A stretch of 64,000 bases of DNA from a virus. Below the pieces are notes generated by a model. The model had not been told where the DNA came from and searched no databases. It saw only the letters and a program-made list of their open reading frames with translations. Shown here piece by piece: positions 21,495-61,896 of the stretch. A program made the position numbers and the translations under genes. The stretch's first letter is position 1. The number at the start of each line of letters is the position of its first letter. The DNA lies in IMG/VR virus record IMGVR_UViG_3300019886_000004, positions 64,001 to 128,000 of that record, one strand, 5' to 3'.

Positions 21495-21526
21495 ATAATA
21501 TACTGAAAATATTCCATATAACCAAA
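21495..21526 (-). promoter_or_regulatory. Promoter of HNH gene (variant class)
   Basis: TTTG-N20-TATATTAT. Confidence 0.55.
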
Positions 21527-21537
21527 TTTATTTTCTA

Positions 21538-43160: not shown

Positions 43161-44195
43161 TTATTTAAAAGAATTTATTAATTGTCTCCTTAGTAGATTT
43201 ACTTTAAGTAAGTCATACTTTCTTTTAACATACTCATGTAATCTCTCCCCGTCATCTAAAACTAAATTCATATTCTCCATTAGTGTTCTTGCCTTTGCAA
43301 ACCAATCGCTTGGTTTATCGCAGAAATATATTCCACTATTTTCCATTTCTTCATCTTCTAGATATGGAAATAATCTACTTGCCATTACAGGAGTTTTCAT
43401 ACAACCAGCTTCAATTATCTTTAAGTTTGACTTAAAGTAATTAAACTGATTATGTTCCAGTGGAGCAAGAGCTACATCAGTGTAATTATAATGTTCCATA
43501 TATCTATTTAGAGATAATGCATCTCTAGTAGAATAACTTGGACTAATCTTCATCACATCATTCATTTCATGAAGAGCTTTCTCCTTATAGTTACTATTAA
43601 AACCTGCTAATATAAACTTAGTCTTTATTTTAAAGTTTACATTCATATTAACCATAGTGAAAAAATCTTTTATAGACTCTAAGTCATATTGATGACTTGG
43701 TCCTCCAGAATACATAAATCTAAGTCGGCTTGCCTCCGTTTTCTCTGATTTAAACTGTTCATGACCAATTGGTAATGCGTTTGGTATAACTATACACTTT
43801 TTATTAATATCGCTTACCCTTCTAAATAATCTCTGGTTAGTTACTGTAACTATATCTGCATTGGTAATAGATTTTAAAATAAGATCTGCTATTTTATTTT
43901 TAGTCCAAGTCTCATAAAGATAATGATGTTCATATAGCTCCCAAATATCATCTATATCTACCCACATTTTAAATCCATACCTTTTCTTCATTTCCAGTAG
44001 AATATCTAAATCTACAGTTGGATGTCGATTAAAAATAACAAGATCTGTATTCTTAAACTCACCAGTAGTATATTGCTCATCATCAGTTTTATACTCTATG
44101 TGTTCACCAGACTCTAGTGGTAGATAACGAAAAGGGTTGTAAATCCTATGATAATCACTTGCGCTTTTAGGTCGGTGAAGTAATAGAATGTTCAT
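43161..44195 (-). CDS. GT-B fold glycosyltransferase (GT4-like)
   Basis: DIDD, ADIVTV, IPNA, GGPSH, DVALAPL...FNYFKSNLKIIEAG. Confidence 0.85.
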   Translation of the reverse strand: MNILLLHRPKSASDYHRIYNPFRYLPLESGEHIEYKTDDEQYTTGEFKNTDLVIFNRHPTVDLDILLEMKKRYGFKMWVDIDDIWELYEHHYLYETWTKNKIADLILKSITNADIVTVTNQRLFRRVSDINKKCIVIPNALPIGHEQFKSEKTEASRLRFMYSGGPSHQYDLESIKDFFTMVNMNVNFKIKTKFILAGFNSNYKEKALHEMNDVMKISPSYSTRDALSLNRYMEHYNYTDVALAPLEHNQFNYFKSNLKIIEAGCMKTPVMASRLFPYLEDEEMENSGIYFCDKPSDWFAKARTLMENMNLVLDDGERLHEYVKRKYDLLKVNLLRRQLINSFK

Positions 44196-45949: not shown

Positions 45950-46204
45950 ATGAGAACTTCATACTACATTCAGTCCGGTTTTATCGTTAAACGTAATGAT
46001 ACGAAAAATGATACTTACGGACTTTTTAGTTTAACAAAGTGGTTTAAGAAAATGCTTACTGCTTTTCATGTAGCATTTAATGATGATTGTTGTGATGCAA
46101 CTGCTGATCCCACTAATGCACCTGTTAGATTCAATGCAACAGCGGGACATCTGCAGTACTACAATTACGTAAATAACACGTGGACTAACGTACCTAGCCT
46201 CTAA
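45950..46204 (+). CDS. Small putative virion protein
   Basis: 84 aa; VRFNATAGHLQYY...W fibre-type motif, CC pair. Confidence 0.6.
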   Translation: MRTSYYIQSGFIVKRNDTKNDTYGLFSLTKWFKKMLTAFHVAFNDDCCDATADPTNAPVRFNATAGHLQYYNYVNNTWTNVPSL

Positions 46205-46213
46205 ATCTAATTA

Positions 46214-47764
46214 ATGTCTACTAATTGTTCACCTATACAGAGTTGTATACCACAAGGTATTGTTAGTGACCCTTTATGTACTAGTCAAGCTTTATCGCTT
46301 GATTGTGACACAGGAGTACTTTCTCTTTCCAGTGCAAATTCTATTAACTTAGATTGTGCTGTTAAACTATTGGAGACAAAAACTATACTTAGTTCGGTAA
46401 CACTCACTGGCACAATACTTCAAATAATTTATTTAGGAGAAGATAGTGTTCCACAAGCAAAAAACGTAGATTTAAGTTCAATAGCTGGCACAGGAGGTAA
46501 TATTGGTGTTCAGAATAGTAACTCTATTCTTTTACACAATGGTAATAATACCTTAACTGCTACTTTAAACATTGATCCTGCTTCTAGTCTTCCAATAAGT
46601 TCTAGTCCATCTGGTGTTTTATTCGGTTGTTGCCCGGAGACTGTTAATATTACTAATAATACTAACACAATTCAATTGGCAGCTACAGGTTCTGTAGGTC
46701 ATATATTTACCGCTAATTTGAAGTATCAAAGTTCTGGTACCATACTACTATCCGATAGCTCAAATGGTCTTAGCGCAGCTGTAAAGTACTCTACAGATGC
46801 TAATAACGCTGTAGTAAGTGGTACAGATGGTGGAGTATATGTTGCATCTGCATCTTCTCAGTTAGCAAATCTTTCCAATAACGGATTTGTAACAACCGGA
46901 TCTGCTGGTACCCTTTTAGTTGGATCAGATTCTAAATTATATAGAATACCAGATCCTATTGCTGAAAGTCAAATAATTGGCAATAATACCAATACTGTTG
47001 CTTTAACAGTAAATGGACCCAATAATCACACAATTCAAGCTGGTGTTAGATATACTAATACTAATAGCGCTTTAATAAGTGAAACAGGCAGTGGTCTACA
47101 AGTAGATGTTAAATTAGATACTGTCACTCCTGGCAATGTTGGTTTTACTGAAACAATCAATGGTTTGGTTGGAAACATAACCGAAAGTTCGATACTTGGA
47201 GTTCAAAATTCAGTAGCTACTGTTCAGAATCCAATAACCAAGATATATGGTAATTTAAATAACGGTGCTGGTGGTTATGCTGTAGGTTTCCTAAGTCAAT
47301 ATGGATTGAAGACACCTAATTTCACAACTACACAAAGATTTGCCATACCAAGTACTGACTTGTATGACAGTCTTTTAGTATTTGATACTACTCTTAGACA
47401 ATATTATTGGTATGATGCTGTAACACCTGCTTGGATTCAAATTGGAGCAACTACGAGTCCTACTACACCAACTATTTACACGTGGTCTAATGCTGCAAAT
47501 ACTGGAAATTACACTATAAATGCAGCTAATGCTATAAGACTTTCTGATTTAACAGGTCAAGCAAATAGAAATATAGTATTACCGGCATCTCCTACTACTA
47601 TACAACAGTTGCTTATAATAAAAAATGTTAATTCAAGTGGTTTCAATTGGACATTTACAGGAACCACTGTGTTTGATATGAGCGATAGTGCGGTAACAAC
47701 GTTATCAAATAACACCACATACCAACTATCTTGGGATGGTGTAGCATATAATATAATAAATTAA
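46214..47764 (+). CDS. Putative fibre/decoration protein (no signal peptide), paralog of 49591
   Basis: S/T/N/G-rich beta repeats; Cys-rich N-terminus; TTTQR...LVFDTT...YYWYD fibre motif. Confidence 0.6.
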
Positions 47765-49398
47765 TGAATAAACTATACTTATTTCTACTTTTTTTAATCT
47801 TTTCCTTTAGTGTAAATGCTCAAGTAGGAAGAGATTTCTCTAATAGTATTAGTTTTTCTAGATGGGCTAAAGTTGGAGATGGTACCACAGATTACACAGG
47901 TGCATGGAATACTGCTATTAATTATATTATTTCTCATGATAAAGTTCTTGAGATACCAGAAGGAACTTATAATCTGGCTGGAATTTCAGATTTAGCTGGT
48001 ATTTTTGGTAATCCGGGTAGATTAAGAATACATGGTAGAGGACCATCCTCTATTTTGCTTGTTCCAGCTAAGACTTCTGCTCTTATAAATATTGCCAGCT
48101 CAGCTATTACAGCACTGGAAATAGATGGAATATACTTTAAAAGTACGCATGATACCACTAATGTTGGTAATGTTGCTTTATTGCTTCAAGGTACAGCTCC
48201 TAATTTAATAACCAATGTAAAAATAGCAAATTGCATATTTGAAGGTTTTACAACGGCTATCATTGGTAAAGGAGTTAGAGGTTTAGAAATATGTCATAAT
48301 ACATTCAAATCTCCTACTGGACATGACAATGCAACAACTACATCTAATCCAGCTATATTTATCCTTGCTGTGGACAACAATGCAACAGATTTAAATAAAA
48401 ATTGGAATATTCATGATAATTTCGTAGATGGTTATTCTGGAACGCTGTCCATTACTACTACTAAGACAGGTGGTCCAATGGATGGATTCTTCTATGGACA
48501 TGTAAGTGGATTAAATATTAACAATAATACAGTTCTAAATACAGGTCAAGAAGCAATTTATCCAAAAGTTAACATTTCTATAATTGATTCTGGTGTAACT
48601 TCTATAAAAAATAATATTATTTATTCATACATACCAACCGGAAGTAAGGATATGAACGGAGTGCTTATGAGATCTAATTACGCTATAAGAGCTGAGTCTC
48701 AACACTTATTAATAGAAGGTAATACCATACTAGGTGCAACAATCGGAATATGGTCTGATGCAACAAATGATGTCTTTCAATGCCGCGATTTAACAATAAA
48801 GGACAATCATATATTTTTTATAAGAGACACTACAAAAAGAGTACAGTATGGAACATATATTAGAGGAAATGCAAATGGATTTCGTTTTAAAAATGTTATA
48901 GTTAAAGGTAACATTTCTATTCTTGATAGTAGTTTTATATATAGTACATTTAGAAATATTGCATTAACATACGTAGATAGTGCTCAGGTTGAAGGCAATT
49001 CATTGAGTATTGTGAGGTTAACAAAATCAGGAGGAGGTACTCAAGGCATCTCTCTTTTATCTTCAGATAGTGCTTATATTGGAGTAAATATAATGAGAGG
49101 AGTAGATACTACCATAAACTCAGTTTCTTCTAGTTATGTAAATATACCTGTTGTAAGCGGAAGTGGAGGACCACCAACAGGATCTGCGGGTGGACGTCTT
49201 ACTGGTACTTATCCAAATCCATCTCTTGCTAATACAGCGGTAACTCCTGGAAGTTACACTAATGCAAATATAACGGTAGCACCAGATGGAACTATAAGCT
49301 CGGCAACTAATGGAACTGGAGGAGGTGGACTACTTTCAACATCAGCTGGTCAGCAGTGGCACCTAACATTTGATTCTGGAACTACAACGTGGTATTAA
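47764..49398 (+). CDS. Right-handed beta-helix (pectate-lyase-3-like) spike/depolymerase with Sec signal peptide
   Basis: GDGTTDYT...IPEGTY, parallel beta-helix repeats; C-terminal [11 protein letters not shown]...[12 protein letters not shown] fibre repeat; [19 protein letters not shown]|Q. Confidence 0.75.
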
Positions 49399-49408
49399 AA
49401 TATAAGAA

Positions 49409-49591
49409 ATGGCAGATCATCGTTCTATTTTATTGTGGCTCGGATCTAGTTTTACAACAGTAATTGGACTTATAACAGTGAATGATTTAGCAATTATGGT
49501 TGGTATAGCTGCAGGAATAGGTAGTTTAATATCAAGTGGAGTAAATATATACTTCAAATTTAAAAATAAAGGTAAAAAAGATATACAATAA
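49409..49591 (+). CDS. Small membrane protein (holin-like)
   Basis: 60 aa, two hydrophobic segments, basic C-terminus. Confidence 0.5.
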   Translation: MADHRSILLWLGSSFTTVIGLITVNDLAIMVGIAAGIGSLISSGVNIYFKFKNKGKKDIQ

Positions 49592-50952
49592 TGTCAATAC
49601 CGGTATCAAATTCATGCTGCGAACCACAAAGCTTAAAGCTAAATAACTCTACAGGTTATTTATCCATTTCCGATGGTAATAGTGTCTATTTAGGTACTAT
49701 AATAAAAGCATTAGGTATAAGTACACCTGTCATTGACTTCACTTTGGGTGGATTTATATTAACTTTGACTTATACAGATGCTGGTGGTGTTATACAACAT
49801 AAAAATGTAGACCTTTCAGCACTTGCTCAGGGTGGTAGTTTTAGTGTAGCAGATACTCCAACAACTCATTTAGTATATACTAATGGTGTTTTAACTGCAA
49901 ATGTAAACATATCAACTGCAACCAATAATTCTATATTAGCAAAAACAGATGGTATATGGGCTCCTAATTTTACTGAGACTATACTTACAACTACGGATAG
50001 TCCATCTATAGCCTTCACAACAAGTGGAGTAGATGGACATAATGTATCCGGATCAGTTAAGATATCTCAGACAGTAGGTAATAAAATTCAGATAGCTAGT
50101 GATGGATTATTAGTCAATGATATGACTACTTATTTGCTTGCTGGCACAAATATAACTTTAAGTGGTAGTGGTACTGCCTCATCTCCTTACATAATAACAG
50201 CAGGTGGTTTTTCTCAAGTACCTCTTTCTGTTAATGATAGTTCTTCCTTCCATTTTATTTCTTCTGGAACAAGCGGAATGACTTTAAGTGGTAATGTAAA
50301 AGTATCTGGATCTACAGCCAATGCGCTTATTGTTAATGCTGATGGTTTGTATGTACCGCAAGCAAGTACAAATAGTTATAGTGATGTTCAAGCAAGAGCA
50401 GCTATAAGCGCAATTGCACCTCTTTTGTATAATAATACAACTGGTGTAATGAGTTTAGCTCAAGCAACTAGTTCAACTAGTGGTTATCTTGCAAATGCAG
50501 ATTGGCTTACTTTTAATGGTAAGATATCTACAGGAGCTTCAATAGGAACAGCTAGCTCAGTACCTGTATATGCAGGACAAAATGGGACTACTTTAAACTT
50601 TAATGGTTTAAGAGCTGGCACAAATGTAACACTTAACCAGTCTGGTAATGATATAGTTATTAATGCATCCAGTAGTGGTGGAGGTACACCTTCAAGTGTA
50701 TTCTCTATAGACTTTATAGTTGGTGATGGTGGAGCATTAACTCCAACAGCTAATGCATCTCAGTTTAATCCTTCTTCAAATCCTTTAGCGGGTAAAACAA
50801 TACTTGGTTTTTGGGTAGAAGGTATTAAGACAGCTGGAGTTCCGAGAACTGGAGGAGAACTATATTTTACTTTTAGTCAATCGGTTGGAACTATAACTCT
50901 TACAAATGGAGTTTTTTCCTTAGATACATATTATTCAATACTTTATAAATAA
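49591..50952 (+). CDS. Putative fibre/decoration protein (no signal peptide), paralog of 46214
   Basis: Shared N-domain (LxLxxxTGxLSxSxxNSxxL...KNVDLS); internal repeats; SGYLANADWLTFNGK fibre motif. Confidence 0.6.
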   Translation: MSIPVSNSCCEPQSLKLNNSTGYLSISDGNSVYLGTIIKALGISTPVIDFTLGGFILTLTYTDAGGVIQHKNVDLSALAQGGSFSVADTPTTHLVYTNGVLTANVNISTATNNSILAKTDGIWAPNFTETILTTTDSPSIAFTTSGVDGHNVSGSVKISQTVGNKIQIASDGLLVNDMTTYLLAGTNITLSGSGTASSPYIITAGGFSQVPLSVNDSSSFHFISSGTSGMTLSGNVKVSGSTANALIVNADGLYVPQASTNSYSDVQARAAISAIAPLLYNNTTGVMSLAQATSSTSGYLANADWLTFNGKISTGASIGTASSVPVYAGQNGTTLNFNGLRAGTNVTLNQSGNDIVINASSSGGGTPSSVFSIDFIVGDGGALTPTANASQFNPSSNPLAGKTILGFWVEGIKTAGVPRTGGELYFTFSQSVGTITLTNGVFSLDTYYSILYK

Positions 50953-53900
50953 TGAAAAAATTATTTAAATTCATACTGCTCCTTACTTTACCTTTCCTAT
51001 TACCTAAGATATCTTTTGGACAAACAGGTGTTCAGTGGTTAGGTACTAAGGATAATGTTGTTGTTACTAGAAATATAGCAAGAGAAGATAGTGCTCATGA
51101 ATTTGCGCTAACTGATACTAGCAAGCACCCAGCACGTCCAGGTAGAATGATATCTTTTAATGGATCTCCTTACTGGTGGAATGGTATTTTCTGGTATAGA
51201 CTAAACGGTGATACTTCAACAGTACCTGGCCAAGTTAATGCTGACTGGACAGCTACCACTGGTGTGGCTCTTATTTTACATAAACCAACCTTTGCAACTG
51301 TTGCTACAACTGGATCATATACAGATTTAATAAATCCACCAACAATACCTGCAGCTCAGGTTGCTGTGGATTGGAACGCAGCTAGTGGTATAACTCATAT
51401 TTTAAATAAACCAAGAATAACAGATTCAATATGGAGAGTTATAGGTAAGGACTCTATACTATTCAGAATAGTTGGACCAGATGGAGTTGTTAGAAACTAT
51501 TCAATACTTGACTCCGCTGGTGGAGCAGGAGGAGGCGGAGGAGGGACTGTATTTAGCGTGGCAGCAGCAAATCTTACACCTTTATTCTCAACAAATGTTG
51601 CAACTGCAACAACTAATCCAAGCATTACTTTTACTTTAAATAACGCAGCAGCACATACATTCTTCGGAAATAACACTGGATCAACTGGACCACCTACATA
51701 CTCTACAATAGGTTTGGGAGATCTTCCAACTATTCCATTAACAAAAACAGATGTTACAAATGGTATTGGTATATCAGCTATAGTTAGTGGTGTGATAAAA
51801 GTAGATACAAGTGTAATAGGTTATCCTAAATTCATATCGATTTCTAGGAGTCCTAATACAGATAGTGTTTATTACACAGTTAAAACTAATGCAGCTACTA
51901 CTGTAAAGACACTTGGTTTAATAGATAGTGTGAGATATACTAGTATTGGACTTGCTGGAACTACTAATTTAGGTTATCAAACAGGACCTTCTAGTTTCTA
52001 TACTAGAAAAGTTAGACCAGGTACCAATACTGCTTTTACAGCAGATACTGATAGTACACTTGTAATAGCGAGTACATTAACTAATGTAATCAATACTTTA
52101 CAAGTAATAAATTCTGGTGCTGCTAGAAGTATTCAAGTTGGTACATTTTCTGGAAGACCTACTGGTAATACTGGAGATTTTTATGTGGTAAGTGACTCTA
52201 GCTATCGTGAAAGTTATAAAACTGCTAGTGGATGGATATGGATGACAGTAAGTCCTAAGCAACTAGCAGATAGTTTTGCTATTGTTGACACGGTAAAAAT
52301 AGCACATGTTGCTCCAATAAGTAACCTTTATACGAATAGTAATGGAACAACAATAGTTGATGTAGGTTCCAGACAGGGTTGGGGTATGTTAATAACCAAA
52401 TTAACTGACTCTAGTAATCAGTACATGGTTGATAGTAATGCCATAAAAGTCTTAGTTGGATCTGGAGTTACAAGTAGTGTTCAGAGTCAATTTTCTGTTT
52501 CGGGTAATGGCACATCAGCCAATAAACTACAGTTAGTTAATGACTCAGCTGCTGGACCTAATTATGCCTATTATCGAAATAGTGCTGGAAGGCTTGGTTG
52601 GTATCCAATAATTAATGGTCCATTAGCCACACCATCTAGTCCGGGTTTTCTTTCAGCTAATGATTATATAACTATACATACTAGAATAACAGCTATAAAT
52701 GCTCCAGGATCTGGAGATAGTTTAATGTATGCGGTTCCAACAGCTGACACTTTAGTCACTAAAAGAATAATAAAAGGTTATGGATTACTGGCCACAGTAA
52801 CTCAAAATAATATTAAATATGATGTAGATACAACTACATTAAAAGCTGTATTTGGAGCTGGTTCTGGAAGTGGATTAGGTACTGTTACTAGTTTTTCTAG
52901 TGGTAATCTAAATCCGTTATTTACTACCAGTGTAGCAACAGCTACAACTACTCCAACACAAACATTTACATTATCTAATGCTGGTCCTTATATGGTATTT
53001 GGAAATAATAGTGGATCAACAACTACTCCTTCTTACTTTACTCCTATTTTAGCTAGTCTTCTATATCAAAACCAAGGAACTACAACTACATTGCTTCATG
53101 GTAATGGGGTAGGTGCACCTAGTTGGTCTACTTTAAATTTAGCTAGTGAAGTATCAAATGTGTTAGGTACTACAAATGGTGGTACAAACATAAGTTCTTA
53201 TGCACTTGGAGATATCATTTATTCTAATGGTACTAATTCTCTAGCCAAATTAGCTGGTAATGTTACAACAGGCAAACAAGTACTCATTCAAACAGGTAAC
53301 GGATCTATATCTGCAGCGCCAGTTTGGGGTAATTTGACAAATGTTGATGTGGGATTGGGAAATGTTGAAAATACAGCATTATCTACTTGGTCTGGATCCA
53401 CTAATATAACAACATTAGGTACAATAGGTACAGGTGTATGGAATGGTACTATTATTGATGCTGTACGTGGTGGTACCGGACACGGTTCTTATACTATAGG
53501 TGATGTTCTAGTAGCTAATAGCACTACAACATTAGGTTTAGTAAGTGACGTAGCGGCAGGCAATGTATTTTTATCCGGAGGTGTAGGTGCACAACCTACT
53601 TATGGTAAAGTTAATCTTGGTACAATGATAACAGGTAATCTTCCTGTTGCTAACTTAAATAATGGTTCTGGAGCTAGTGCTTCAACAGTCTGGACAGGCA
53701 ATGGCACATGGCAACCCTTTAACACAACCCTTTACAGTGGTGATGGAACTCTTGCTAGCAATAGAACTGTTACAATGGCATCTAACTCTCTTACTTTTAC
53801 AGGAGGTAGTAAAGTCACTTTCAATCAGGCTGTTCAAATAGCCGATGGTACACAAGGTACTAGTAAAGTTTTTACTTCTGATGCTAGTGGTAATGGAGCG

Positions 53901-54275
53901 TGGGGACTAGTAATTGCTTCTGGTGTTTATACACCTACTATTACTAATTCAACAAATGTAGCATCTAGCACTTTTTCTAGTGCTTTTTATAAAAGAATTG
54001 GTAATGTAGTTGAGGTAACTATTACATTTGGTATGGTATGTACCACTGCTGGTGTTCCTACTACTATAACTTTTACAACACCACCTGGTTTGACTGGAGT
54101 TTGGTCGTCAAGCACATCATTCTTAGGTATTGGTAGTTATGGTGTTAATGGAGTATATACACCTGGTGTAGCTATATTTTCCGGAACCTCTGGTGGTATA
54201 GTAGCTTTTCAATGTAATGGTCTATCCGGTAGTTCTAATAGTGGATGTATTAAATTCACCTATTCACTTATATAA
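50952..54275 (+). CDS. Long tail-fibre-like protein with Sec signal peptide
   Basis: QVxxDWxAxxGxxxILxKP repeats, duplicated 55-aa GTVxS...TFTL repeat, DVGLGNVENT, GGTG repeats, VFTSDASGNGAW; MKKLFKFILLLTLPFLLPKISFG|Q. Confidence 0.7.
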   Translation: MKKLFKFILLLTLPFLLPKISFGQTGVQWLGTKDNVVVTRNIAREDSAHEFALTDTSKHPARPGRMISFNGSPYWWNGIFWYRLNGDTSTVPGQVNADWTATTGVALILHKPTFATVATTGSYTDLINPPTIPAAQVAVDWNAASGITHILNKPRITDSIWRVIGKDSILFRIVGPDGVVRNYSILDSAGGAGGGGGGTVFSVAAANLTPLFSTNVATATTNPSITFTLNNAAAHTFFGNNTGSTGPPTYSTIGLGDLPTIPLTKTDVTNGIGISAIVSGVIKVDTSVIGYPKFISISRSPNTDSVYYTVKTNAATTVKTLGLIDSVRYTSIGLAGTTNLGYQTGPSSFYTRKVRPGTNTAFTADTDSTLVIASTLTNVINTLQVINSGAARSIQVGTFSGRPTGNTGDFYVVSDSSYRESYKTASGWIWMTVSPKQLADSFAIVDTVKIAHVAPISNLYTNSNGTTIVDVGSRQGWGMLITKLTDSSNQYMVDSNAIKVLVGSGVTSSVQSQFSVSGNGTSANKLQLVNDSAAGPNYAYYRNSAGRLGWYPIINGPLATPSSPGFLSANDYITIHTRITAINAPGSGDSLMYAVPTADTLVTKRIIKGYGLLATVTQNNIKYDVDTTTLKAVFGAGSGSGLGTVTSFSSGNLNPLFTTSVATATTTPTQTFTLSNAGPYMVFGNNSGSTTTPSYFTPILASLLYQNQGTTTTLLHGNGVGAPSWSTLNLASEVSNVLGTTNGGTNISSYALGDIIYSNGTNSLAKLAGNVTTGKQVLIQTGNGSISAAPVWGNLTNVDVGLGNVENTALSTWSGSTNITTLGTIGTGVWNGTIIDAVRGGTGHGSYTIGDVLVANSTTTLGLVSDVAAGNVFLSGGVGAQPTYGKVNLGTMITGNLPVANLNNGSGASASTVWTGNGTWQPFNTTLYSGDGTLASNRTVTMASNSLTFTGGSKVTFNQAVQIADGTQGTSKVFTSDASGNGAWGLVIASGVYTPTITNSTNVASSTFSSAFYKRIGNVVEVTITFGMVCTTAGVPTTITFTTPPGLTGVWSSSTSFLGIGSYGVNGVYTPGVAIFSGTSGGIVAFQCNGLSGSSNSGCIKFTYSLI

Positions 54276-54283
54276 CAATTAGT

Positions 54284-55609
54284 ATGAAAAAATTATTATA
54301 TCTCTTTTTATTTTTAATACCTGTGTTTAGTTTCGGTCAATTACCAATACTAAATTTGAGTAATATGGTGCAACCAGGTAATACACCATCTATATCTATT
54401 GCTACAAGCTCTATAACATTTGCACCAATAGTATCTGGTAATAGTTCTGCGTCCCAGAATACAACAACTACAGCTGCTAATCTAACAAATCCCGGATCAA
54501 TAACTTCTCCAGGTACATGGTTAGAATTATCCTTTAATAATAGTACTCCCTGGTCATCTAGTTTAAGTCTTCCAATAACATCAGGTAACTGGACTGGAGC
54601 ACCGGTAGTATTTTATTTTAGAGTAACTTCCGTAGCTCCTGTTGGTCCTAACACTGGTAATATAACAGTAGCATCAAGTGGAGCATCACCTAAAACTATA
54701 GCTGTTACTGCAACAGTAACGTCTCCAGGAGCGTCTTTAAATGCTAGTCCGTTATCTTTTACAGGTATGTCTGCTGTGGCTGGTACTCAAGGATCAAGTG
54801 TTAACTATCTTTTAACCGGATCTAATTTGGGTGCAAATAATGTAACAGTAACTGCTCCAACTAATTTTTTAGTATCTAAAGATAATTCATCTTTTGCTAC
54901 TTCACAAGTAGTAACCCCTAGTAGTGGATCTGTTAATCAAACTATATATACAGCAATAGCTTCTACAGCCCTAGCTGGAGCAGTATCTGGTAATATATCA
55001 AATGTTGTTTCAGGTGCAAGTACAGTTAATGTATCAGTTTCAGGCGTTGTAAGTTCTCCAAGTTCAGCTGATAGTATAAATGTCAATTTTTGGAATAGTG
55101 CAAATGGTAATGTTAATCCGGCTAATGGTTGGAATAATATAGCTTTAATTGAGTCAGGTTCACCTCAAACAAGTGCTACTTTACTTAGAACTACAGGTGT
55201 CTCTTCTGGAGTGACTGTAACTATAAGCACTGTAGATCTTTTATTTGATAATTTTGATAATGGTGCTGGATATGGCAATGCCACCACTCTTCCTATACCA
55301 CCTGTTGTATGGAGAATAGAGGCTGTTTCTACCGCATCTGAAGCTGTTACCTTAACACTTAATGGATTAGTAGTTGGACATCATTATAACTTCTTGATAG
55401 GTTCTGGTGCTAACACAGGTACAGCAAGACCACAATCCTTTGCAATACCTGGTCAAACTACTCAAAATTTAGATGCTAGACAAAATATAAATACTTTAGT
55501 TTCATTTACTAGTATAACAGCAGGAGCTACTTCACTCGTACTTACTGTAACACCAACAAGTGGAGCTTCTACTTCACTTAATTTCTTCCAGTTAGTAGAT
55601 AATCATTAA
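54284..55609 (+). CDS. Exported Ig-like (beta-sandwich) repeat protein
   Basis: Signal peptide ...VFSFG|Q; two Ig-like repeats and a C-terminal INVNF... lectin/CBM-like domain. Confidence 0.65.
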   Translation: MKKLLYLFLFLIPVFSFGQLPILNLSNMVQPGNTPSISIATSSITFAPIVSGNSSASQNTTTTAANLTNPGSITSPGTWLELSFNNSTPWSSSLSLPITSGNWTGAPVVFYFRVTSVAPVGPNTGNITVASSGASPKTIAVTATVTSPGASLNASPLSFTGMSAVAGTQGSSVNYLLTGSNLGANNVTVTAPTNFLVSKDNSSFATSQVVTPSSGSVNQTIYTAIASTALAGAVSGNISNVVSGASTVNVSVSGVVSSPSSADSINVNFWNSANGNVNPANGWNNIALIESGSPQTSATLLRTTGVSSGVTVTISTVDLLFDNFDNGAGYGNATTLPIPPVVWRIEAVSTASEAVTLTLNGLVVGHHYNFLIGSGANTGTARPQSFAIPGQTTQNLDARQNINTLVSFTSITAGATSLVLTVTPTSGASTSLNFFQLVDNH

Positions 55610-55611
55610 TA

Positions 55612-58600
55612 ATGAGGAAATTACTATTTCTAATATTATCTTTTATAGGTTTTTATGCTAATGCTCAGGTAGAGTCTACAATCTCAGTGCCTTATACTAG
55701 TTCTGCTAGTCCTACTTTTCAGGCATTATTATATTTACCTTCTGATTATAATACTACAAGTGGTAATTATCCTTTGATAATTTTCTGCCATGGTTCTGGA
55801 GAATCATGTCCTCCTCTAAGTAATATTTATAATAGCTCAAGCGCTGGTGGACCACCTTATGAAATAGAACATGGAACCTGGCCAACTGATGGAGGTTTCA
55901 TAAACCCAAAAGATGGCCTAAAATATAAGTTTATAGTTGTTTCTCCTCAATCTGCTTGTAATAGCTGGTCTGCATCTGGAGATCAAATAGAGAACATAAA
56001 AATCTATTTAGTTACACACTATAGAATAGATATAAATAGAATTTACGGCACCGGTTTGTCTTCTGGTGGTGGTGGTATGATAGAAAATGTATCTCATCAA
56101 AACGGTAATGAAACAGGACCTGTCTTCACACCTACATATCCTTTTGCTGCTGTTGTTCCAATGAGCCCTGCTACTAATAGTCCTCAGCAATCATGGATGG
56201 CTACAATGGTTCATGACAGTACCTCTGGATGGTGGTTTGGTGACCAGTCTGGTGACACTTATGGAGAATGGGCTTTAAATGAAATTAATTTTGTCAATGC
56301 TATTAAAACAAACTATGCTAGATTAACAGGTCATCCTGGAACTAGTGGACAAAATAGCTTTACAACAGGTCATGGCCCTTGGAGACCATTTTATATTCCA
56401 ACATATACAGAAACATTTGTAGCTGTTGGTATGACTACACCAGCTACTATGAATATGTACCAGTGGTTTTTAACACAAACCAGACCAGGAGCAGTAGTAA
56501 CAACTCCAACAGCTAACGCTGGATCAAATCAAAATATAACATTACCAACAAACTCTGCTACGTTAAGTGGCTCAGGTACGCCAGGTAGTGGACATCTAAT
56601 AAGTTCGTATGGTTGGACGCAAATTTCTGGACCTAATACTGCTAATATTAATCCATCTAGTTCAACTACTACTGGATCTACCACTGTGAGTGGACTTATT
56701 GCTGGAACTTACGTTTTTCAATTAACAGTAACTAATAATATATCAGCTACTGCTACTAGTACTGTTTCAGTAACAGTTAATCCAGCGCCTGCTCCAACAG
56801 CCAACGCAGGACCAGATCGTACATTGGTCTTACCAACTACGACTTTAACATTAGATGGGTCCGCATCAAGTAATACTACTTCTTACAGTTGGACTTTCAT
56901 ATCCGGACCAGGCACTCCAACTATAGTTTCTCCTACTTCTGCTATAACAAATATAAATAATTTATCAGCAGTTGGAGTTTATATATTTCAGCTTTCTGTA
57001 AATGGTGGAGTAAGTACAGATAGAGCAAACGTAACAGTTAATGCTGCATCTACTTATCCCGCCTGTGGGACTGGAACTAAATATACTCCAGTACCAGATC
57101 CATCTGATTCAGGTGTGTTTATAGGTGTATCATCTGCTGCCAACTATAAACCTGGTGATACTATTGTTTTAAGTAGTGCTTTTAAATGGAGTTATTTCGA
57201 AATGGATGGATATCAAGGTAATCCTTCTTGTCCATTAGTAATTATAAATGATGTAGGTATAACTAAACTAAGAAAGTTTATACGTCTAGATGGTTGTACA
57301 TACATAAAAATAGTTGGAGGTGGTAATTCAGGTAATTTCTATGGTTTATTTATAGAATACGATCCTGTAAATATATGGCAAGGATTTGCTGGTATACAAC
57401 TAGTTGGAAGAACTTCTAACATAGAAGTAACAAGAGTATTTACACACCACACAGACATTGGTATAGTTTGTGAGAATAATGGTAGTTGTGATCCCAGTCA
57501 AAATTATCCTAATTGGATAATAGATTCAATTTTTATACATGATAACAAAATTGTTGGCACCTGGAATGAAGGGATGTATATTGGTAATACCGCTCCAGAC
57601 AATCAAGGTAATGATTTAAGACCAGTAGTTTGTCCGATTGGTGTTGGTGGTGCAGATAGCACTATTTATCCAGCTCCAGCTAAAAATGGATATACAAAAA
57701 TTTGGAACAATATAGTAGATACAACTGGGAGAGGTGGTATACAGTTAGCTAATGCAATAAATGGTCCTAGTGAGATATATAACAATACTGTCAGTCATAA
57801 TGGAATAAATGGAGATGATGCTCAAGGAGCAGCCATTAACTTAGGATTATACACACAAGTGTATGTTCATGACAATACAATAAGTAATACTTATACATGG
57901 GGTATATCTAGTATAGGATCGGGAGCTACTAATAAGCCTGTTAGACTAGAGAATAATCATATTGATAGTTCGGGTTTCTTAAGAACTTTTGATCTATCTC
58001 AAACTAGTAGAGATCATTATAATCCTGCTACAGAACCAAGTTTTATTGATAGTTTACCTTGGCCTTATCCTTTATTTATAGATACAAGACCTCGCCATTA
58101 TACTACAGATTCACCACATCCTGGTACAGCAATAGTTGGACAAGATAGTACTCAATTCTGGATAAAAAATAATGTAGTAGGATTATTTAAAGCAGTAACA
58201 AGAACTGATGGTGGGGCAACTGCAGCTATTCAAATACAAGATGACTTCCTAGGTATACAAAAATTTGGTAATATAATTTGTAACAATACAAATAAGAATG
58301 GTAGTCCTGCTACAATATTTGTAGATAATAGTAATGGTACAATAAATTATTCTACAAACTGTTCTGCTCCTCCTACAGTAAATGCTGGTACAGATCAGTT
58401 CCTGTCTAGTGGATCAACTAGTGTTAACTTGGTTGGCACAGCGGTTCCAACAAGTGGAGCAACTATAACACAAGTTACATGGACACAACTTTCTGGTAGT
58501 AATCCGGTTTCGATAGGTTCTCTACATTCTCTTAATACAATAGCAACTGGACTTACACCATCAGGAGTTTATACGTTTAGATTATTTGCACTAGATAGTA

Positions 58601-58695
58601 ATAACAATACTTCCAGTGATGACATAATAGTTGTAGTAGCTAGTGGAGCTCCGGCTCAATATCTTTTATTTAGACGAAAAACATACATACAATAA
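55612..58695 (+). CDS. Exported alpha/beta-hydrolase + PKD repeats + beta-helix protein
   Basis: Signal ...FYANA|Q; YLPSDY...YPLIIFCHGSGE, TGLSSGG nucleophile elbow, GHGPW; three PTA/VNAG...WT..SG...YxFxL PKD repeats; beta-helix. Confidence 0.8.
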   Translation: MRKLLFLILSFIGFYANAQVESTISVPYTSSASPTFQALLYLPSDYNTTSGNYPLIIFCHGSGESCPPLSNIYNSSSAGGPPYEIEHGTWPTDGGFINPKDGLKYKFIVVSPQSACNSWSASGDQIENIKIYLVTHYRIDINRIYGTGLSSGGGGMIENVSHQNGNETGPVFTPTYPFAAVVPMSPATNSPQQSWMATMVHDSTSGWWFGDQSGDTYGEWALNEINFVNAIKTNYARLTGHPGTSGQNSFTTGHGPWRPFYIPTYTETFVAVGMTTPATMNMYQWFLTQTRPGAVVTTPTANAGSNQNITLPTNSATLSGSGTPGSGHLISSYGWTQISGPNTANINPSSSTTTGSTTVSGLIAGTYVFQLTVTNNISATATSTVSVTVNPAPAPTANAGPDRTLVLPTTTLTLDGSASSNTTSYSWTFISGPGTPTIVSPTSAITNINNLSAVGVYIFQLSVNGGVSTDRANVTVNAASTYPACGTGTKYTPVPDPSDSGVFIGVSSAANYKPGDTIVLSSAFKWSYFEMDGYQGNPSCPLVIINDVGITKLRKFIRLDGCTYIKIVGGGNSGNFYGLFIEYDPVNIWQGFAGIQLVGRTSNIEVTRVFTHHTDIGIVCENNGSCDPSQNYPNWIIDSIFIHDNKIVGTWNEGMYIGNTAPDNQGNDLRPVVCPIGVGGADSTIYPAPAKNGYTKIWNNIVDTTGRGGIQLANAINGPSEIYNNTVSHNGINGDDAQGAAINLGLYTQVYVHDNTISNTYTWGISSIGSGATNKPVRLENNHIDSSGFLRTFDLSQTSRDHYNPATEPSFIDSLPWPYPLFIDTRPRHYTTDSPHPGTAIVGQDSTQFWIKNNVVGLFKAVTRTDGGATAAIQIQDDFLGIQKFGNIICNNTNKNGSPATIFVDNSNGTINYSTNCSAPPTVNAGTDQFLSSGSTSVNLVGTAVPTSGATITQVTWTQLSGSNPVSIGSLHSLNTIATGLTPSGVYTFRLFALDSNNNTSSDDIIVVVASGAPAQYLLFRRKTYIQ

Positions 58696-60182
58696 TGACT
58701 ATATATAAACTAGTTACAGATAGACTTCTAGATAAGTTACAAAGAATGGTGAATAATCTTTACTTTATAATGGGTAAAGCTAATGGTGTTGCTACTCTTG
58801 ATAGTACTGGAAAGGTACCTACTTCTCAAATACCAAGTGGTGGAGGAGGTGGAGTAACATCTTTTAATGCTAGAACCGGAGTTGTTGTTCCAGCTTCTAG
58901 TGACTATACGTTTGCTCAGATAGCAACCACTCCAACTACTGTGACTGGTTATGGTATAACTGATGCGGCTACTTTAACAGGTACTCAAACGTTAACTAAT
59001 AAGACTATATCTGGAGCATCTAATACGTTATCTAATATAGCAGAATCTTCAGTAACAAATCTAACTACTGACTTAGCAGCTAAACAAGCCACTATTACTT
59101 TAACTACTACTGGTACAAGTGGAGCAGCAACACTGGTTGGAGCTACTTTAAATGTACCAAACTATGCAACAGGTGGTGGAACTCCTGGTGGATCTACTAC
59201 GCAACTACAATATAATAATGCTGGTGCCTTTGGTGGAACTAGTGGTGCCACCGCAACCGCTACCGTGGTAACTCTAGTGGCTCCTGTCTTAGGCACGCCT
59301 ACTTCAGGTACACTGACTAGTTGTACAGGACTTCCAATTTCAACTGGAGTTAGCGGACTTGCAGCAGGTGTTGCTACTTTTTTAGCTACTCCTACAAGTG
59401 CTAACTTAGCGACTGCTGTGACTAATGAAACTGGAAGTGGTCTTTTAGTATTTGCTACTTCTCCGGTGCTAACCACTCCTAATATTGGAGTAGCTACCGC
59501 TACTACGGTAAATAATGTAACTATAACTGCGCCTGCTACCTCTGCTACCTTAACATTGGTTCAGGGATCAAGTTTAATAACTGCTGGTGCTTTTGCAACT
59601 ACTCTTGCGGCCACTGCTGCTACAACCACTACTATACCTCCCATATCAAGCACTTTGGTTGGAATGGTGGCTAGTGGAACCGCTGCTGCTCAGGCAACAT
59701 TAGATATTAACTTTAGTTCTTATTTTAGTCAATTTTCAGTTATTGAGATACAACTAAATAGTGTGATACTAGCTACAGATAATGTGGATATGTATTGTAG
59801 ATTAAGTATAGATGGAACTACTTTCGATTCTGGAGCAGGAGCATATTCTTGGGCTCTTACCTTCGGTAAATCAGATGCTTCTTCCGGTGGAGATGGTAGT
59901 AATTCTGCTACTCAAATAGTATTAAATGGAACAGGATCTCATGTAGCAGGAAGTGCAACTATTCCATTAAATGTCACTGTAAAAATCTTTAATCCTGGTG
60001 TATCAACTTTTAGACCAATGGTTGGGTTTTCTACTCACTATTATAATGGAACTACAGCAAATATACTTTCGGCCATAGGGACCGGATCTAGAAATACTAA
60101 TCAAGTAACGAAAGGAATAAGATTCTTAACAAGTTCAGGTAATATAACATCTGCAAATTACAGAGTTATAGGATATCCATAA
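58695..60182 (+). CDS. Tail fibre protein (no signal peptide)
   Basis: GKANGVATLDSTGKVP, VTSFNARTG, PTTVTGYGITDA, TQTLTNKTI, PGGSTTQLQYNNAGAFGG. Confidence 0.75.
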   Translation: MTIYKLVTDRLLDKLQRMVNNLYFIMGKANGVATLDSTGKVPTSQIPSGGGGGVTSFNARTGVVVPASSDYTFAQIATTPTTVTGYGITDAATLTGTQTLTNKTISGASNTLSNIAESSVTNLTTDLAAKQATITLTTTGTSGAATLVGATLNVPNYATGGGTPGGSTTQLQYNNAGAFGGTSGATATATVVTLVAPVLGTPTSGTLTSCTGLPISTGVSGLAAGVATFLATPTSANLATAVTNETGSGLLVFATSPVLTTPNIGVATATTVNNVTITAPATSATLTLVQGSSLITAGAFATTLAATAATTTTIPPISSTLVGMVASGTAAAQATLDINFSSYFSQFSVIEIQLNSVILATDNVDMYCRLSIDGTTFDSGAGAYSWALTFGKSDASSGGDGSNSATQIVLNGTGSHVAGSATIPLNVTVKIFNPGVSTFRPMVGFSTHYYNGTTANILSAIGTGSRNTNQVTKGIRFLTSSGNITSANYRVIGYP

Positions 60183-60203
60183 ATAATTAAAAATTCAAAT
60201 ATT

Positions 60204-60548
60204 ATGTTACAAAAAATCGAATCGTTTTTTTCAGGGAATAAGGTGTTTATCCTTGGTAGTCTATCTGCCATTGGAGTTGCTTTACAGCAATATTTAACAG
60301 GAACAATAGATTGGAAAGTAATTGGTTTTGCAATTGTCATTGCTGTTCTATCTTATCTTGCCAAGAGTCTTAGTGGAACAGTTGCTTCCATATTAGGTAT
60401 ACTTGGTGGTGTTGCAACTACAGTTTCTCAAGTAGCATCAGGTGGAAAAATAGGGTGGAGTGCACTTATACTTAGCACTGTCATCTCTATAATCGGAGTA
60501 GTAACAAGCTCAGCAACCAGTACAAAAATAACTAGTCCCATAAGTTAA
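60204..60548 (+). CDS. Putative holin
   Basis: 114 aa, about 4 hydrophobic helices, directly upstream of the endolysin. Confidence 0.6.
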   Translation: MLQKIESFFSGNKVFILGSLSAIGVALQQYLTGTIDWKVIGFAIVIAVLSYLAKSLSGTVASILGILGGVATTVSQVASGGKIGWSALILSTVISIIGVVTSSATSTKITSPIS

Positions 60549-60571
60549 TTAAACTCAAATAAGTAAAAGTT

Positions 60572-60599
60572 AGCCAGAACCAAGAATGATTCTGGCTTT
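60572..60599 (+). terminator. Hairpin between holin and endolysin (weak terminator/attenuator)
   Basis: AGCCAGAA...TTCTGGCT followed by a short T-run. Confidence 0.45.
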
Positions 60600-60623
60600 C
60601 GTTGTTATTGATCATCAACTAAA

Positions 60624-61064
60624 ATGAAAATTATGGAAATTACATTTGCAGACACAGTAATTATAAGGCAATTTGAAGGCTATATACCACATGTATATAA
60701 GGACCAAATTGGTGTACTAACTTGTTGCTGGGGATTAACTGGACCTAGCTTAAGAGAAGGAACGACATTTACTCAAGACGAATGTACAGAGATGTTCATG
60801 AAAAGAATAAATGATTTTTCTTCTAAACTAAATAATCTCATAAAAACTCAAGTAACCAAAAATCAATACATTGCTCTTTTGAGTTTAGCGTTTAATATTG
60901 GAGAAGGCGCATTTGGATCTAGTACTCTCCTTAAGAAGGTAAATGTAGATCCTAATGATAAAACTATCGAAGCACAATTTAAACTTTGGATTCATGCTGG
61001 TGGCAAAGTATTAGATGATTTAGTTAAAAGACGTGCTCAAGAAGCTGCACTTTATTTTAGTTAA
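60624..61064 (+). CDS. Endolysin, GH24 phage lysozyme
   Basis: FEG...YKDQIGVLT (E-8x-D-5x-T), ALLSLAFNIG, STLLKKVN, LVKRRAQE. Confidence 0.92.
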   Translation: MKIMEITFADTVIIRQFEGYIPHVYKDQIGVLTCCWGLTGPSLREGTTFTQDECTEMFMKRINDFSSKLNNLIKTQVTKNQYIALLSLAFNIGEGAFGSSTLLKKVNVDPNDKTIEAQFKLWIHAGGKVLDDLVKRRAQEAALYFS

Positions 61065-61456
61065 TTCACTAGCCTATAAATGTGACTAACTTTGTTAATT
61101 GAATCCTGTAATAATATTTGCAATCCAAGCTTATGTAGAATGTTTATAAGATTCTGAGCTTGTTCAGTGATTCTGAAATTAGCCTCATGCACACCATTCC
61201 ATGTAGAATATTGGAATGGTTTCGTTATAGTAAGACCTTTGTAAACAGTATTTCCAGATGTACTATACAACCATCCTAAATATTTGGTTGTATCGCTTCC
61301 AAATCTTATGGCATATAACTTAGTATAGTCACAGTATACAATTTGAAACTTCTCTTTAGCCTCGCTTGCATAGGCTCCATAATCTGTTATAGTATCTTTC
61401 TTTTGTGAATATCCTTTCAAACCAACTAAAAGGAGTAATAAGATTAGTATTTTCAT
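61061..61456 (-). CDS. Small exported protein
   Basis: MKILILLLLLVGLKGYS|Q signal peptide. Confidence 0.65.
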   Translation of the reverse strand: MKILILLLLLVGLKGYSQKKDTITDYGAYASEAKEKFQIVYCDYTKLYAIRFGSDTTKYLGWLYSTSGNTVYKGLTITKPFQYSTWNGVHEANFRITEQAQNLINILHKLGLQILLQDSINKVSHIYRLVN

Positions 61457-61896
61457 TGTATGTAATGATTTGCTTTTCTGATTGAGTCTTTTGCTTTTCT
61501 ATCATAGTGCTTATAACTAACTATAACATGTATCATACTATCTGCTTGAGCTTGTGTCTTAAAGTTTAAACCTTTTGGACAGTATGGTGTGATAGTATAT
61601 TTATTTATTCTTGTAGTATAGTTTTGTGTTTTAAAGCTATCTACTTTAATACCTACGTATCCTACTTCTGTGGTTTTAGTAGTAAAATTCCTACAGTAAT
61701 CTTTAATTACATACCTGAAAGGAACAGCTAAACTATCTTTCTCAACTACAAACATATGATTTTTATCTGAAAAAAAGTTGTAAAAATTATGACTATAATA
61801 ATGTTGTAAAACTTTACCAGACGTGTCATGTTGATGTCTTTGAGCATTTATCTTAGTAAAACCAAGACATAATATAAAAAACAGTATATATTTCAT
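61453..61896 (-). CDS. Small exported protein
   Basis: MKYILFFILCLGFTKINA|Q signal peptide. Confidence 0.65.
   Translation of the reverse strand: MKYILFFILCLGFTKINAQRHQHDTSGKVLQHYYSHNFYNFFSDKNHMFVVEKDSLAVPFRYVIKDYCRNFTTKTTEVGYVGIKVDSFKTQNYTTRINKYTITPYCPKGLNFKTQAQADSMIHVIVSYKHYDRKAKDSIRKANHYIQ

Follow-up and report, generated by a model that had tools for sequence, protein, structure and literature searches.

Predicted Sec export of four fibre-like and glycan-active late proteins of a crAss-like phage

We found that four large proteins (544, 1107, 441 and 1027 aa) encoded in the late fibre-lysis operon of an uncultured crAss-like phage are very probably exported, as predicted from their sequences, by the Sec pathway and signal peptidase I of the host. 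Export appears to be real because the signals and the Gln residue at +1 are conserved, because O-glycosylation sequons are enriched, and because the 1027-aa protein is homologous to cargo of the type IX secretion system (T9SS). Tailed phages are taught to build every part of the virion in the cytoplasm; since the four proteins combine genuine-looking secretion signals with the sugar-attachment motifs of the host, they probably mature in the periplasm instead.

The phage and its late fibre-lysis operon

The source is a phage of soil-type Bacteroidota with a genome of 147,916 bp (148 kb) and 187 ORFs. It is crAss-like (Crassvirales-related) by its terminase, portal and major capsid protein (phrog_6681, phrog_6547 and phrog_11589, respectively) and by two giant ORFs (4049 and 2000 aa), such ORFs downstream of the tail genes being a crAss trait. 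In tblastn searches the portal matched crAss-like, Cellulophaga and Flavobacterium phages at 21-32% identity, and megablast of the fibre-lysis module against GenBank phages gave no match. The host is probably a member of the Chitinophagaceae (Bacteroidota). In three syntenic phage contigs of 85-123 kb (L014, L021 and L022), which come from soil or freshwater samples, genes with and without a signal alternate in the same manner before the lysis genes. The features of the operon are listed below, with coordinates in the window, i.e. the whole stretch of 64,000 nt that was analysed; a hyphen before Q marks the predicted cleavage site.

about 70-100 nt upstream of the 45950..46204 gene: promoter-like element, TTTG-N20-TATATTATA
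45950..46204, + strand: signal-less protein, 84 aa, first gene of the operon; homologues in L014 (14852-15130) and L022 (6160-6441)
46214..47764, + strand: signal-less fibre-like protein, 516 aa; Cys-containing N-terminus as in the other signal-less fibres, variable C-terminus
47764..49398, + strand: predicted exported beta-helix protein, 544 aa; signal at residues 1-19 (nt 47764-47820), VNA-Q
49409..49591, + strand: holin-like membrane protein, 60 aa, two predicted membrane segments; conserved in L021 and L022
49591..50952, + strand: signal-less protein, 453 aa; evenly conserved, C-terminus included
50952..54275, + strand: predicted exported fibre-like protein, 1107 aa; signal at residues 1-23 (nt 50952-51020), SFG-Q
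54284..55609, + strand: predicted exported protein, 441 aa; signal at residues 1-18 (nt 54284-54337), SFG-Q
55612..58695, + strand: predicted exported enzyme, 1027 aa; signal at residues 1-18 (nt 55612-55665), ANA-Q; K/R-rich C-terminal tail at about nt 58654-58692
58695..60182, + strand: signal-less fibre protein, 495 aa; N-terminus conserved, C-terminal half variable
60204..60548, + strand: membrane protein, 114 aa, adjoining the endolysin, called holin-like from its position only; kept in L022, where an endolysin of another type follows
60624..61064, + strand: endolysin, 146 aa, without signal or SAR segment; Pfam Phage_lysozyme, E 1e-34; phrog_7

The 544, 1107, 441 and 1027 aa proteins are interleaved with three signal-less fibre proteins (516, 453 and 495 aa) upstream of a holin-like gene and the lysozyme. 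Stop and start codons overlap as TAATG at 47764, 49591, 50952 and 58695, and the remaining gaps within the fibre operon are 2-10 nt, so that the interleaving and the several TAATG overlaps described in an earlier, sequence-only reading of this DNA were borne out by the coordinates. That reading had also placed the module just upstream of a holin and an endolysin. The endolysin is indeed a Phage_lysozyme, with a hydrophilic N-terminus in which no signal or SAR segment was found; the 'holin' at 60204 owes its name to position and membrane character, and it matched no family. A second holin-like gene with family support (49409-49591; phrog_20 holin, E 9e-6; Pfam Phage_holin_2_3, 27.3 bits at a cut-off of 28.8) sits within the fibre operon, and the same holds for each of the three phages with the exported fibre. 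Among the signal-less fibres, the identity of the 516-aa protein falls to 0-0.1 over the last 115 residues.

Export signals and their conservation

The sequence-only reading had assigned a basic-hydrophobic signal peptidase I signal, followed by Gln at +1, to the proteins starting at 47764 (...VNA-Q), 50952 (...SFG-Q), 54284 (...SFG-Q) and 55612 (...ANA-Q), and our inspection of the sequences and a home-made rule both agree with it. Each of the four signals has K/R within the first three residues, an uncharged hydrophobic core of 10-14 residues, and small residues at -3 and -1. Applied to the whole genome, this rule (a crude one, which is not SignalP) flagged a signal with Gln at +1 in 10 of the 187 ORFs, including six smaller proteins, and in none of the head, portal, terminase, giant-ORF or replication proteins. 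In both proteins modelled by AlphaFold (441 and 544 aa), residues 2-18 formed a lone helix before the folded body.

About 60 metagenomic homologues and the three syntenic contigs retain the signals together with Gln at +1. For the 1107-aa fibre, all ten homologues at 58-80% identity keep the signal, with the Q nearly invariant while the hydrophobic core drifts. Among the full-length homologues of the 1027-aa esterase the signal is present in 12 of 13 and Q at +1 in 11; the 441-aa family has both in 24 of 24, and so does P0283, the only true homologue of the 544-aa protein. The fibre repeat of the 1107-aa protein as such is mostly found on signal-less proteins, the signal being present in only 5 of 73 IMG/VR proteins that share it. 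The signal-bearing ORFs start at, or right next to, the stop codon of the gene before them, which speaks for translation of the signals. The database gene caller had set the start of the 441-aa protein at Met28, thus omitting the signal; Met28 is not conserved among the homologues, and the call suggests that internal starts yielding cytoplasmic isoforms are possible.

Domain content of the four proteins

Residues 26-156 and 830-919 of the 1107-aa protein matched proteins annotated as tail fibres in unrelated phages, and the fibre repeat of this protein was found in at least 469 IMG/VR stretches. Identity is 0.8 over the conserved N-terminal ~150 residues, which carry DW fibre repeats, and drops to 0.1-0.2 over the hypervariable last ~100. 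Searching IMG/VR with this sequence alone returned repeat-level matches only, and an alignment-based search returned one full-length relative, L073. The N-terminus matched no known family in Pfam, PHROG and PDB sequence searches. Its domain was not found in three Chitinophagaceae genomes or in 301 genomes of that (Puia) family, in which the repeats alone matched. As the domain was found only in phage-size contigs, the fibre signal does not appear to be the leftover of a known host gene.

In three phages, the start of the 1107-aa gene overlaps the stop of the gene for the uniformly conserved, signal-less 453-aa protein. This protein, whose translation is coupled to that of the exported fibre, is a candidate adaptor. 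A complex prediction with three copies each of the C-terminal 154 residues of the 453-aa protein and of fibre residues 24-150 scored 0.01, which is no evidence either way. We also considered that the exported fibre might keep a known docking domain. However, when its N-terminus was compared by hhalign with those of the signal-less fibres that L014 has at this position, no homology was found (probability 0.4%), and this argument was therefore dropped. Disulfide formation as the reason for fibre export was rejected as well, because the fibre homologues of L021 and L022 contain no Cys.

The 544-aa protein combines a GDGTTD-type pectate-lyase-like start, a right-handed beta-helix and a C-terminal fibre motif, which recurs in proteins named phage tail fibre. 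Its model, of moderate confidence (mean pLDDT 58), is a right-handed beta-helix resembling glycanases and tailspikes. The 441-aa protein was modelled as tandem Ig-like beta-sandwich domains followed by a C-terminal beta-sandwich (pLDDT 85.9). In the 1027-aa protein, an alpha/beta-hydrolase esterase domain is followed by two K319L-like PKD domains, a beta-helix region, a third PKD domain and a short K/R-rich tail. The esterase proteins are Cys-rich (11-16 Cys), for which disulfide formation is plausible. Sequence searches of the PDB gave no useful match for the 544, 1107 and 441 aa proteins, and tblastn of the 1027-aa protein against GenBank phages gave none.

Phage fibre or spike repeats had been claimed for the proteins at 47764 and 50952. 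The repeats of the latter were matched, and the beta-helix of the former stands at moderate model confidence only. The 441 and 1027 aa proteins are not fibre-like and look like binding and enzyme proteins of the host-secretome type.

No T9SS C-terminal sorting domain (TIGR04183/PF18962, or type B) was matched at E 0.01 in Pfam and NCBIfam by any of the four proteins, while the positive controls P0005 and P0007 passed the TIGR04183 cut-off with 38.8 and 54.5 bits; the lack of this domain, stated in the sequence-only reading, was thus confirmed. The bacterial homologues of the 1027-aa protein (P0005, P0007 and a 1575-aa protein of Puia dinghuensis, L025) have the signal, the Q and a T9SS type A domain. 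The phage form ends after the last PKD domain, with the signal retained and the C-terminal sorting domain missing.

Enrichment of O-glycosylation sequons

The O-glycosylation sequon of Bacteroidota is D-(S/T)-(A/I/L/V/M/T) (PMC8698959). In the proteins with a signal or lipoprotein N-terminus we observed 46 sequons against 14.1 expected (~3-fold, Poisson p 1e-11), and in the four proteins alone 25 against 11.1 (p 2e-4). All other large proteins, which are signal-less, had 64 against 65.8 expected, and the signal-less fibres of four phages 25 against 25.6. The excess was 2.5-fold in the homologue families of the exported proteins and 2.0-fold in their bacterial T9SS-cargo relatives; the enrichment could be partly inherited from host-derived domains and not selected in the phage.

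Taken singly, the 1107-aa protein gave a clear excess (12 against 4.4, all within residues 46-626), the 544 and 1027 aa proteins were borderline, and the 441-aa protein showed none (1 against 0.9). Among the signal-less proteins, the 516-aa protein had no excess beyond chance (5 against 2.4, p 0.08), the 453-aa protein had no sequon against 2.0 expected, and one L022 protein showed a mild excess (6 against 2.3). The test, on which the sequence-only reading had not drawn, offers a cheap means that needs no more than sequence to find exported phage proteins in Bacteroidota viromes.

Proposed role and alternative explanations

We propose that the four proteins are Sec-exported, periplasm-matured, glycan-binding or glycan-degrading proteins, which are released at lysis and act as free proteins; taken as a whole, we consider this account to be evenly poised between right and wrong. 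The proteins would be expressed from the late operon as Sec and signal peptidase I substrates of the Bacteroidota host. After translocation, the signal would be cut before Gln, which the host would cyclise to pyroglutamate, the general O-glycosylation system of the host would decorate the sequons, and the Cys-rich esterase could form disulfides. Since none of the four has a T9SS sorting domain, they would build up in the periplasm until lysis by holin and endolysin. Judged by domain content, this glycan toolkit would consist of a beta-helix glycanase-like protein (544 aa), a trimeric-fibre-like adhesin with a hypervariable tip (1107 aa), an Ig-like/beta-sandwich binder (441 aa) and an esterase-PKD-beta-helix enzyme related to host T9SS cargo (1027 aa). 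Most likely, the proteins would be soluble or loosely bound to surface or periplasmic polysaccharides of the host and would act within the envelope of the infected cell and in the vicinity of the cell once it has burst, where glycans would be stripped or masked, progeny freed and receptors on neighbouring cells exposed. The particle itself could be served by the three signal-less fibre proteins.

Alternatively, the exported 1107-aa fibre, perhaps together with the beta-helix protein and the esterase, might mature in the periplasm and dock on cytoplasm-built particles when the holin(s) and the endolysin merge the two compartments, giving glycosylated, pyroglutamate-capped host-recognition organelles. 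The widespread phage fibre repeats, the location of the module just before the lysis genes, which is that of the virion fibres in crAss001, and the holin-like gene inside the operon in 3/3 phages with the exported fibre are consistent with such docking. The gradient from a conserved base to a hypervariable tip, typical of receptor-binding fibres of virions, and the start/stop overlap with the 453-aa gene favour it over a role as a free protein. However, a tip that tracks receptor variation would equally be expected of a decoy or receptor-masking protein, the domain behind the signal has no detectable homology to the signal-less L014 fibre N-termini, signal-less fibres are at hand for the particle, and the fibres of phi4:1 (structural by MS/MS) and crAss001 (by annotation) are all signal-less. 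We regard assembly of this kind as rather unlikely. The receptor decoys or envelope-remodelling factors, which the sequence-only reading had named as further roles for exported fibres or adhesins, may also apply.

The same gradient is found in the MAT fibres of Bdellovibrio, in which a signal is followed by a conserved beta-rich domain and diversified tips (PMC10769870). The fibre-like protein could be anchored in the envelope of infected cells or vesicles by its conserved N-terminal domain and be displayed, by a route other than T9SS, as an adhesin, decoy or superinfection block. This seems improbable, as no outer-membrane targeting feature (T9SS domain, lipobox or beta-barrel) was found and the N-terminal domain was not found in the 301 Puia-family genomes, where the repeats alone matched. 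We give slightly less credence still to the view that the hydrophobic N-termini are not used for export, being functionless remnants of host genes that were captured, anchors that stay uncleaved, or segments bypassed by internal starts, with assembly in the cytoplasm as for ordinary fibres. The Met28 call for the 441-aa protein and the clear relation of the esterase to host genes speak for it; on the other hand, signal and Gln persist over ~60 diverged homologues while the core residues drift, the sequon enrichment is confined to signal-bearing proteins, and the hydrophobic cores lack the length needed for a membrane anchor.

Relation to known systems

To our knowledge, all phage proteins for which export is known serve in lysis or exclusion. 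In the phage described here, an entire conserved set of late proteins, fibre-like and glycan-active, appears to be fitted to the Sec pathway, Q-rule and O-glycosylation of the host. The four N-termini resemble those of the Bacteroidota Q-rule substrates of Sec and signal peptidase I (PMC10653852) in the basic n-region, short hydrophobic core, small residues at -3/-1 and Gln at +1. Those substrates are cellular envelope proteins, whereas ours are made late by a tailed phage of lytic appearance and have fibre- or tailspike-like bodies. Matrishin et al. 2023 (PMC10367356) reported Q-rule signals on five genes of unknown function in temperate phages of Porphyromonas gingivalis and discussed their products as modifiers of the host outer membrane. 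These are likewise phage-encoded, with predicted use of the host Sec pathway and an exposed N-terminal Gln, but the set comprises no fibre, tailspike or depolymerase-like protein and came without sequon analysis. The strategy had been called possibly undescribed; this remains tenable for fibres and tailspikes, as signal peptides on such proteins of tailed phages were not reported in the literature searched, but not for Q-rule signals on phage proteins of unknown function, which are published.

Sec-exported or SAR endolysins, such as Lys44 of Oenococcus phage fOg44 and others (PMC6116005), are also late phage proteins sent over the inner membrane by host Sec before lysis. They are, however, lysis enzymes, whereas here the endolysin is signal-less and the exported proteins are fibre-like, binding or polysaccharide-active. 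The MAT fibres of Bdellovibrio bacteriovorus, trimers that resemble phage tail fibres and in which the signal peptide is immediately followed by a conserved domain and the tips are diversified, show that phage-tail-like fibres can fold after Sec export (PMC10769870). These fibres are bacterial, displayed on the surface of the predator with no phage involved, and their likeness to the 1107-aa protein is one of architecture.

Bacteroides phage crAss001 (gp22-gp30) and Cellulophaga phage phi4:1 (gp046-gp052) have distantly related portals (21-24% identity). As here, several large fibre or tailspike genes of crAss001 lie directly upstream of the holin and endolysin, and the gp046-gp052 fibres of phi4:1 are virion parts by MS/MS. 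In contrast to our four proteins, the fibre-module proteins of both phages have no signal peptide, and those of crAss001 have no sequon excess. If the exported proteins were virion-borne, the particles would carry host-type O-glycans, with a bearing on stability, host range and immune recognition as well as on how fibres are predicted and engineered. If they are free periplasmic or released enzymes, they would form a new class of phage-made receptor-destroying or dispersal factors, derived from trimmed host T9SS cargo. The Chitinophagaceae cargo proteins (Puia dinghuensis, L025 7869-12596; P0005 and P0007) share 46-55% identity with the phage enzyme over the esterase, beta-helix and PKD regions, and also have the signal with Gln at +1 and abundant sequons. 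They exceed the phage enzyme in length, contain additional GDSL or second esterase domains and close with a T9SS type A sorting domain, whereas the phage forms end in the K/R-rich tail.

Probable export signals in the fibre module

Four large proteins of the fibre module were found to begin with a basic-hydrophobic signal followed by Gln at position +1, and the three proteins interleaved with them carried no signal:

46214-47764, +, 516-aa protein, no signal
47764-49398, +, 544-aa protein, cleavage site VNA↓Q
49591-50952, +, 453-aa protein, no signal
50952-54275, +, 1107-aa fibre, cleavage site SFG↓Q
54284-55609, +, 441-aa protein, cleavage site SFG↓Q
55612-58695, +, 1027-aa esterase protein, cleavage site ANA↓Q
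58695-60182, +, 495-aa protein, no signal

The signals were called with our own simple rule rather than a trained predictor, and this rule, together with the N-terminal residues, confirmed the four signal-bearing proteins described in the sequence-only reading. Its further observations, that these genes are interleaved with signal-less fibre genes, several by TAATG overlaps, ahead of the lysis genes, and that a C-terminal sorting domain of the T9SS is absent, were borne out as well (none of the four proteins scored one). By the same rule, 10 of the 187 ORFs in the genome had a signal with Gln at +1, and none of these was a core virion or replication protein.

The signal was kept in all ten homologues of the 1107-aa fibre, in which the +1 Gln was near-invariant and the hydrophobic core drifted, in 12 of 13 full-length esterase homologues (Gln at +1 in 11), in 24/24 members of the 441-aa family and in the sole true homologue of the 544-aa protein. 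Signal-less and signal-bearing genes alternated likewise upstream of the lysis genes in three related phage contigs, L014, L021 and L022. The start codons of the signal-bearing ORFs overlapped or abutted the preceding stop codons; the database gene call places the start of the 441-aa protein at Met28. In the structure models of the 441- and 544-aa proteins, residues 2-18 formed an isolated helix.

The O-glycosylation motif of Bacteroidota is D-(S/T)-(A/I/L/V/M/T) (PMC8698959), and we compared the counts of this sequon with those expected from shuffles. The signal or lipoprotein proteins of the genome contained 46 sequons vs 14.1 expected, and its other large proteins 64 vs 65.8. The four window proteins alone had 25 vs 11.1 (p 2e-4), with no excess in the 441-aa protein, whereas signal-less fibres pooled over four phages had 25 vs 25.6. 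Enrichment was 2.5-fold in the homologue families and 2.0-fold in T9SS-cargo relatives. Only in proteins that enter the periplasm would selection for sequons be meaningful, and their enrichment in signal-bearing proteins supports functional export signals. Conservation, sequons and start codons agree as three lines of evidence that the signals are functional. The signals are therefore regarded as a genuine, conserved feature; export is well supported, and the four proteins are very probably delivered to the periplasm.

Identity of the four signal-bearing proteins

The 1107-aa protein contains a repeat that also occurs in proteins annotated as tail fibres in unrelated phages; at least 469 IMG/VR stretches have it. 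Among its ten homologues, identity was about 0.8 at residues 51-150 and 0.1-0.2 in the last 100 residues, the gradient usual for a receptor-binding fibre. The 544-aa protein was predicted, in a model of moderate confidence, to form a right-handed beta-helix like those of GH87 glucanases, alginate epimerase/lyases and tailspikes, and the 441-aa protein was modelled as tandem Ig-like sandwiches followed by a terminal beta-sandwich (pLDDT 85.9).

In the 1027-aa protein, an alpha/beta-hydrolase esterase is followed by two K319L-like PKD domains, then by a beta-helix region and a third PKD domain. Its nearest full-length cellular relatives are Chitinophagaceae proteins, e.g. of Puia dinghuensis, which share the signal with Gln at +1 but also carry a T9SS type A sorting domain and additional enzyme domains. 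Homologues of the phage type measure about 1000 aa, lie on contigs of up to about 100 kb and lack the sorting domain. After the last PKD domain, about 20 of them (P0002, P0014, P0021, P0024, P0025, P0030, P0046 and others) end in a short K/R/H-rich tail, whereas the bacterial homologues continue with more domains and the sorting domain.

about 58654-58692, +, K/R/H-rich C-terminal tail of the 1027-aa protein (12-15 residues in phage-type homologues)

Operon structure and lysis genes

Nine genes are closely packed from 45950 to 60182, with TAATG overlaps at 47764, 49591, 50952 and 58695 and remaining gaps of 2-10 nt; a 114-aa membrane protein and then a Phage_lysozyme endolysin follow. Further features of this region are:

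43161-44195, - (L021, 3332-4369; L022, 2427-3461), glycosyltransferase (phrog_7162)
45950-46204 (L014, 14852-15130; L022, 6160-6441), conserved short ORF whose product has a CC-containing motif
49409-49591, + (L021, 8480-8665; L022, 8461-8643), 60-aa holin-like gene (phrog_20, E 9e-6)
61061-61456 and 61453-61896, -, two small signal-bearing proteins, Gln at +1
63341-63991, -, 216-aa lipoprotein

The holin-like protein has two predicted membrane segments and a Pfam Phage_holin_2_3 score slightly below the cut-off. Its gene lies inside the fibre operon, about 10 kb ahead of the endolysin gene. It is conserved in all three phages with an exported fibre (the window phage, L021 and L022), and no copy was seen in the module of L014. 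The 114-aa protein (60204-60548) is kept in L022, where the endolysin after it is of the Peptidase_M15_4/VanY type and not a lysozyme (L022 region, 21289-22171): the putative holin is conserved, and the endolysin following it has been exchanged. The CC-motif ORF is first in the operon in the window and in L022 and lies downstream of the endolysin in L014, and the glycosyltransferase, conserved in three phages, lies on the opposite strand just before the fibre module. Directly beyond the endolysin, also on the opposite strand, the two small proteins and the lipoprotein (7 sequons vs 1.0 expected) gave no family matches; they could be spanin-like or exclusion proteins.

Possible role of the exported proteins

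Because they lack a T9SS domain, a lipobox and a barrel, the four proteins would stay in the periplasm until lysis. They may act, free or loosely bound, as glycan-binding and glycan-degrading factors within the infected envelope and in the surroundings of the burst cell. We favour this reading, to which we give an even chance, since two of the four are proteins of host-secretome type and since the 441-aa/esterase pair, which forms the core conserved among the exported proteins, bears its signals in L014 as well, although the fibres there have none. The signal-less fibres at hand for the particle favour it too, and they also count against the alternative that an exported fibre docks on the virion. 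Such two-compartment assembly, which would be categorically new if true, seems improbable to us. The conservation gradient of the 1107-aa fibre, its translational coupling to the uniformly conserved, signal-less 453-aa protein and the distribution of the holin-like gene are consistent with docking; however, homology between the N-terminus of the fibre and those of signal-less fibres was not detected.

Comparison with other phages

In Cellulophaga phage phi4:1, unlike in the window module, all MS/MS-verified structural proteins, including fibres, are signal-less. In crAss001 the fibre/tailspike genes gp22-gp26 directly precede the lysis genes, as in the window, but their products lack both signals and a sequon excess. 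Among 73 IMG/VR proteins that have the repeat of the 1107-aa fibre and are complete at the N-terminus, five had a signal-like start (two with Gln at +1). Four other phage proteins with this DW fibre repeat (IMG/VR stretches L099, L111, L148 and L149) have N-termini that resemble signals, with or without the Q, which suggests that fibre-repeat proteins gained signals independently in other phage lineages.

Routing of phage proteins via the host Sec system is known, and exported phage endolysins have been published (PMC6116005), as have phage-like fibres bearing signals in Bdellovibrio (PMC10769870). The suggestion that the strategy is undescribed holds for tailed-phage fibres and tailspikes, for which no signals were found in the literature searched, but not for Q-rule signals as such, which have been reported for uncharacterised Porphyromonas phage genes (PMC10367356).

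Genome context

The source IMG/VR virus record is 147,916 bp long and rated complete, the window being its bases 64001-128000. Terminase, portal and major capsid protein matched phrog_6681, phrog_6547 and phrog_11589, respectively, and their genes are followed by two giant ORFs (4049 and 2000 aa). The replication genes form a minus-strand block and the fibre/lysis genes a plus-strand block (45950-61064). The portal matched those of crAss-like, Cellulophaga, Flavobacterium and Bacteroides phages at 21-32% identity, and by gene order and family matches the layout is crAss-like. G+C was 34-38% in the fibre module (46001-60000) vs 27-32% in the remaining window, which could reflect either a composition rich in G/S/T or an origin in hosts of higher G+C.

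Two ORFs, which match positions 54-357 and 359-659 of phrog_1252, together make up the family B DNA polymerase. Between them lies a 237-aa ORF that is GIY-YIG-like at its N-terminus; the polymerase gene looks split, or interrupted by an intron or endonuclease.

14144-15148, -, ORF of the polymerase region
15126-15839, -, 237-aa ORF between the polymerase parts
16075-17058, -, ORF of the polymerase region
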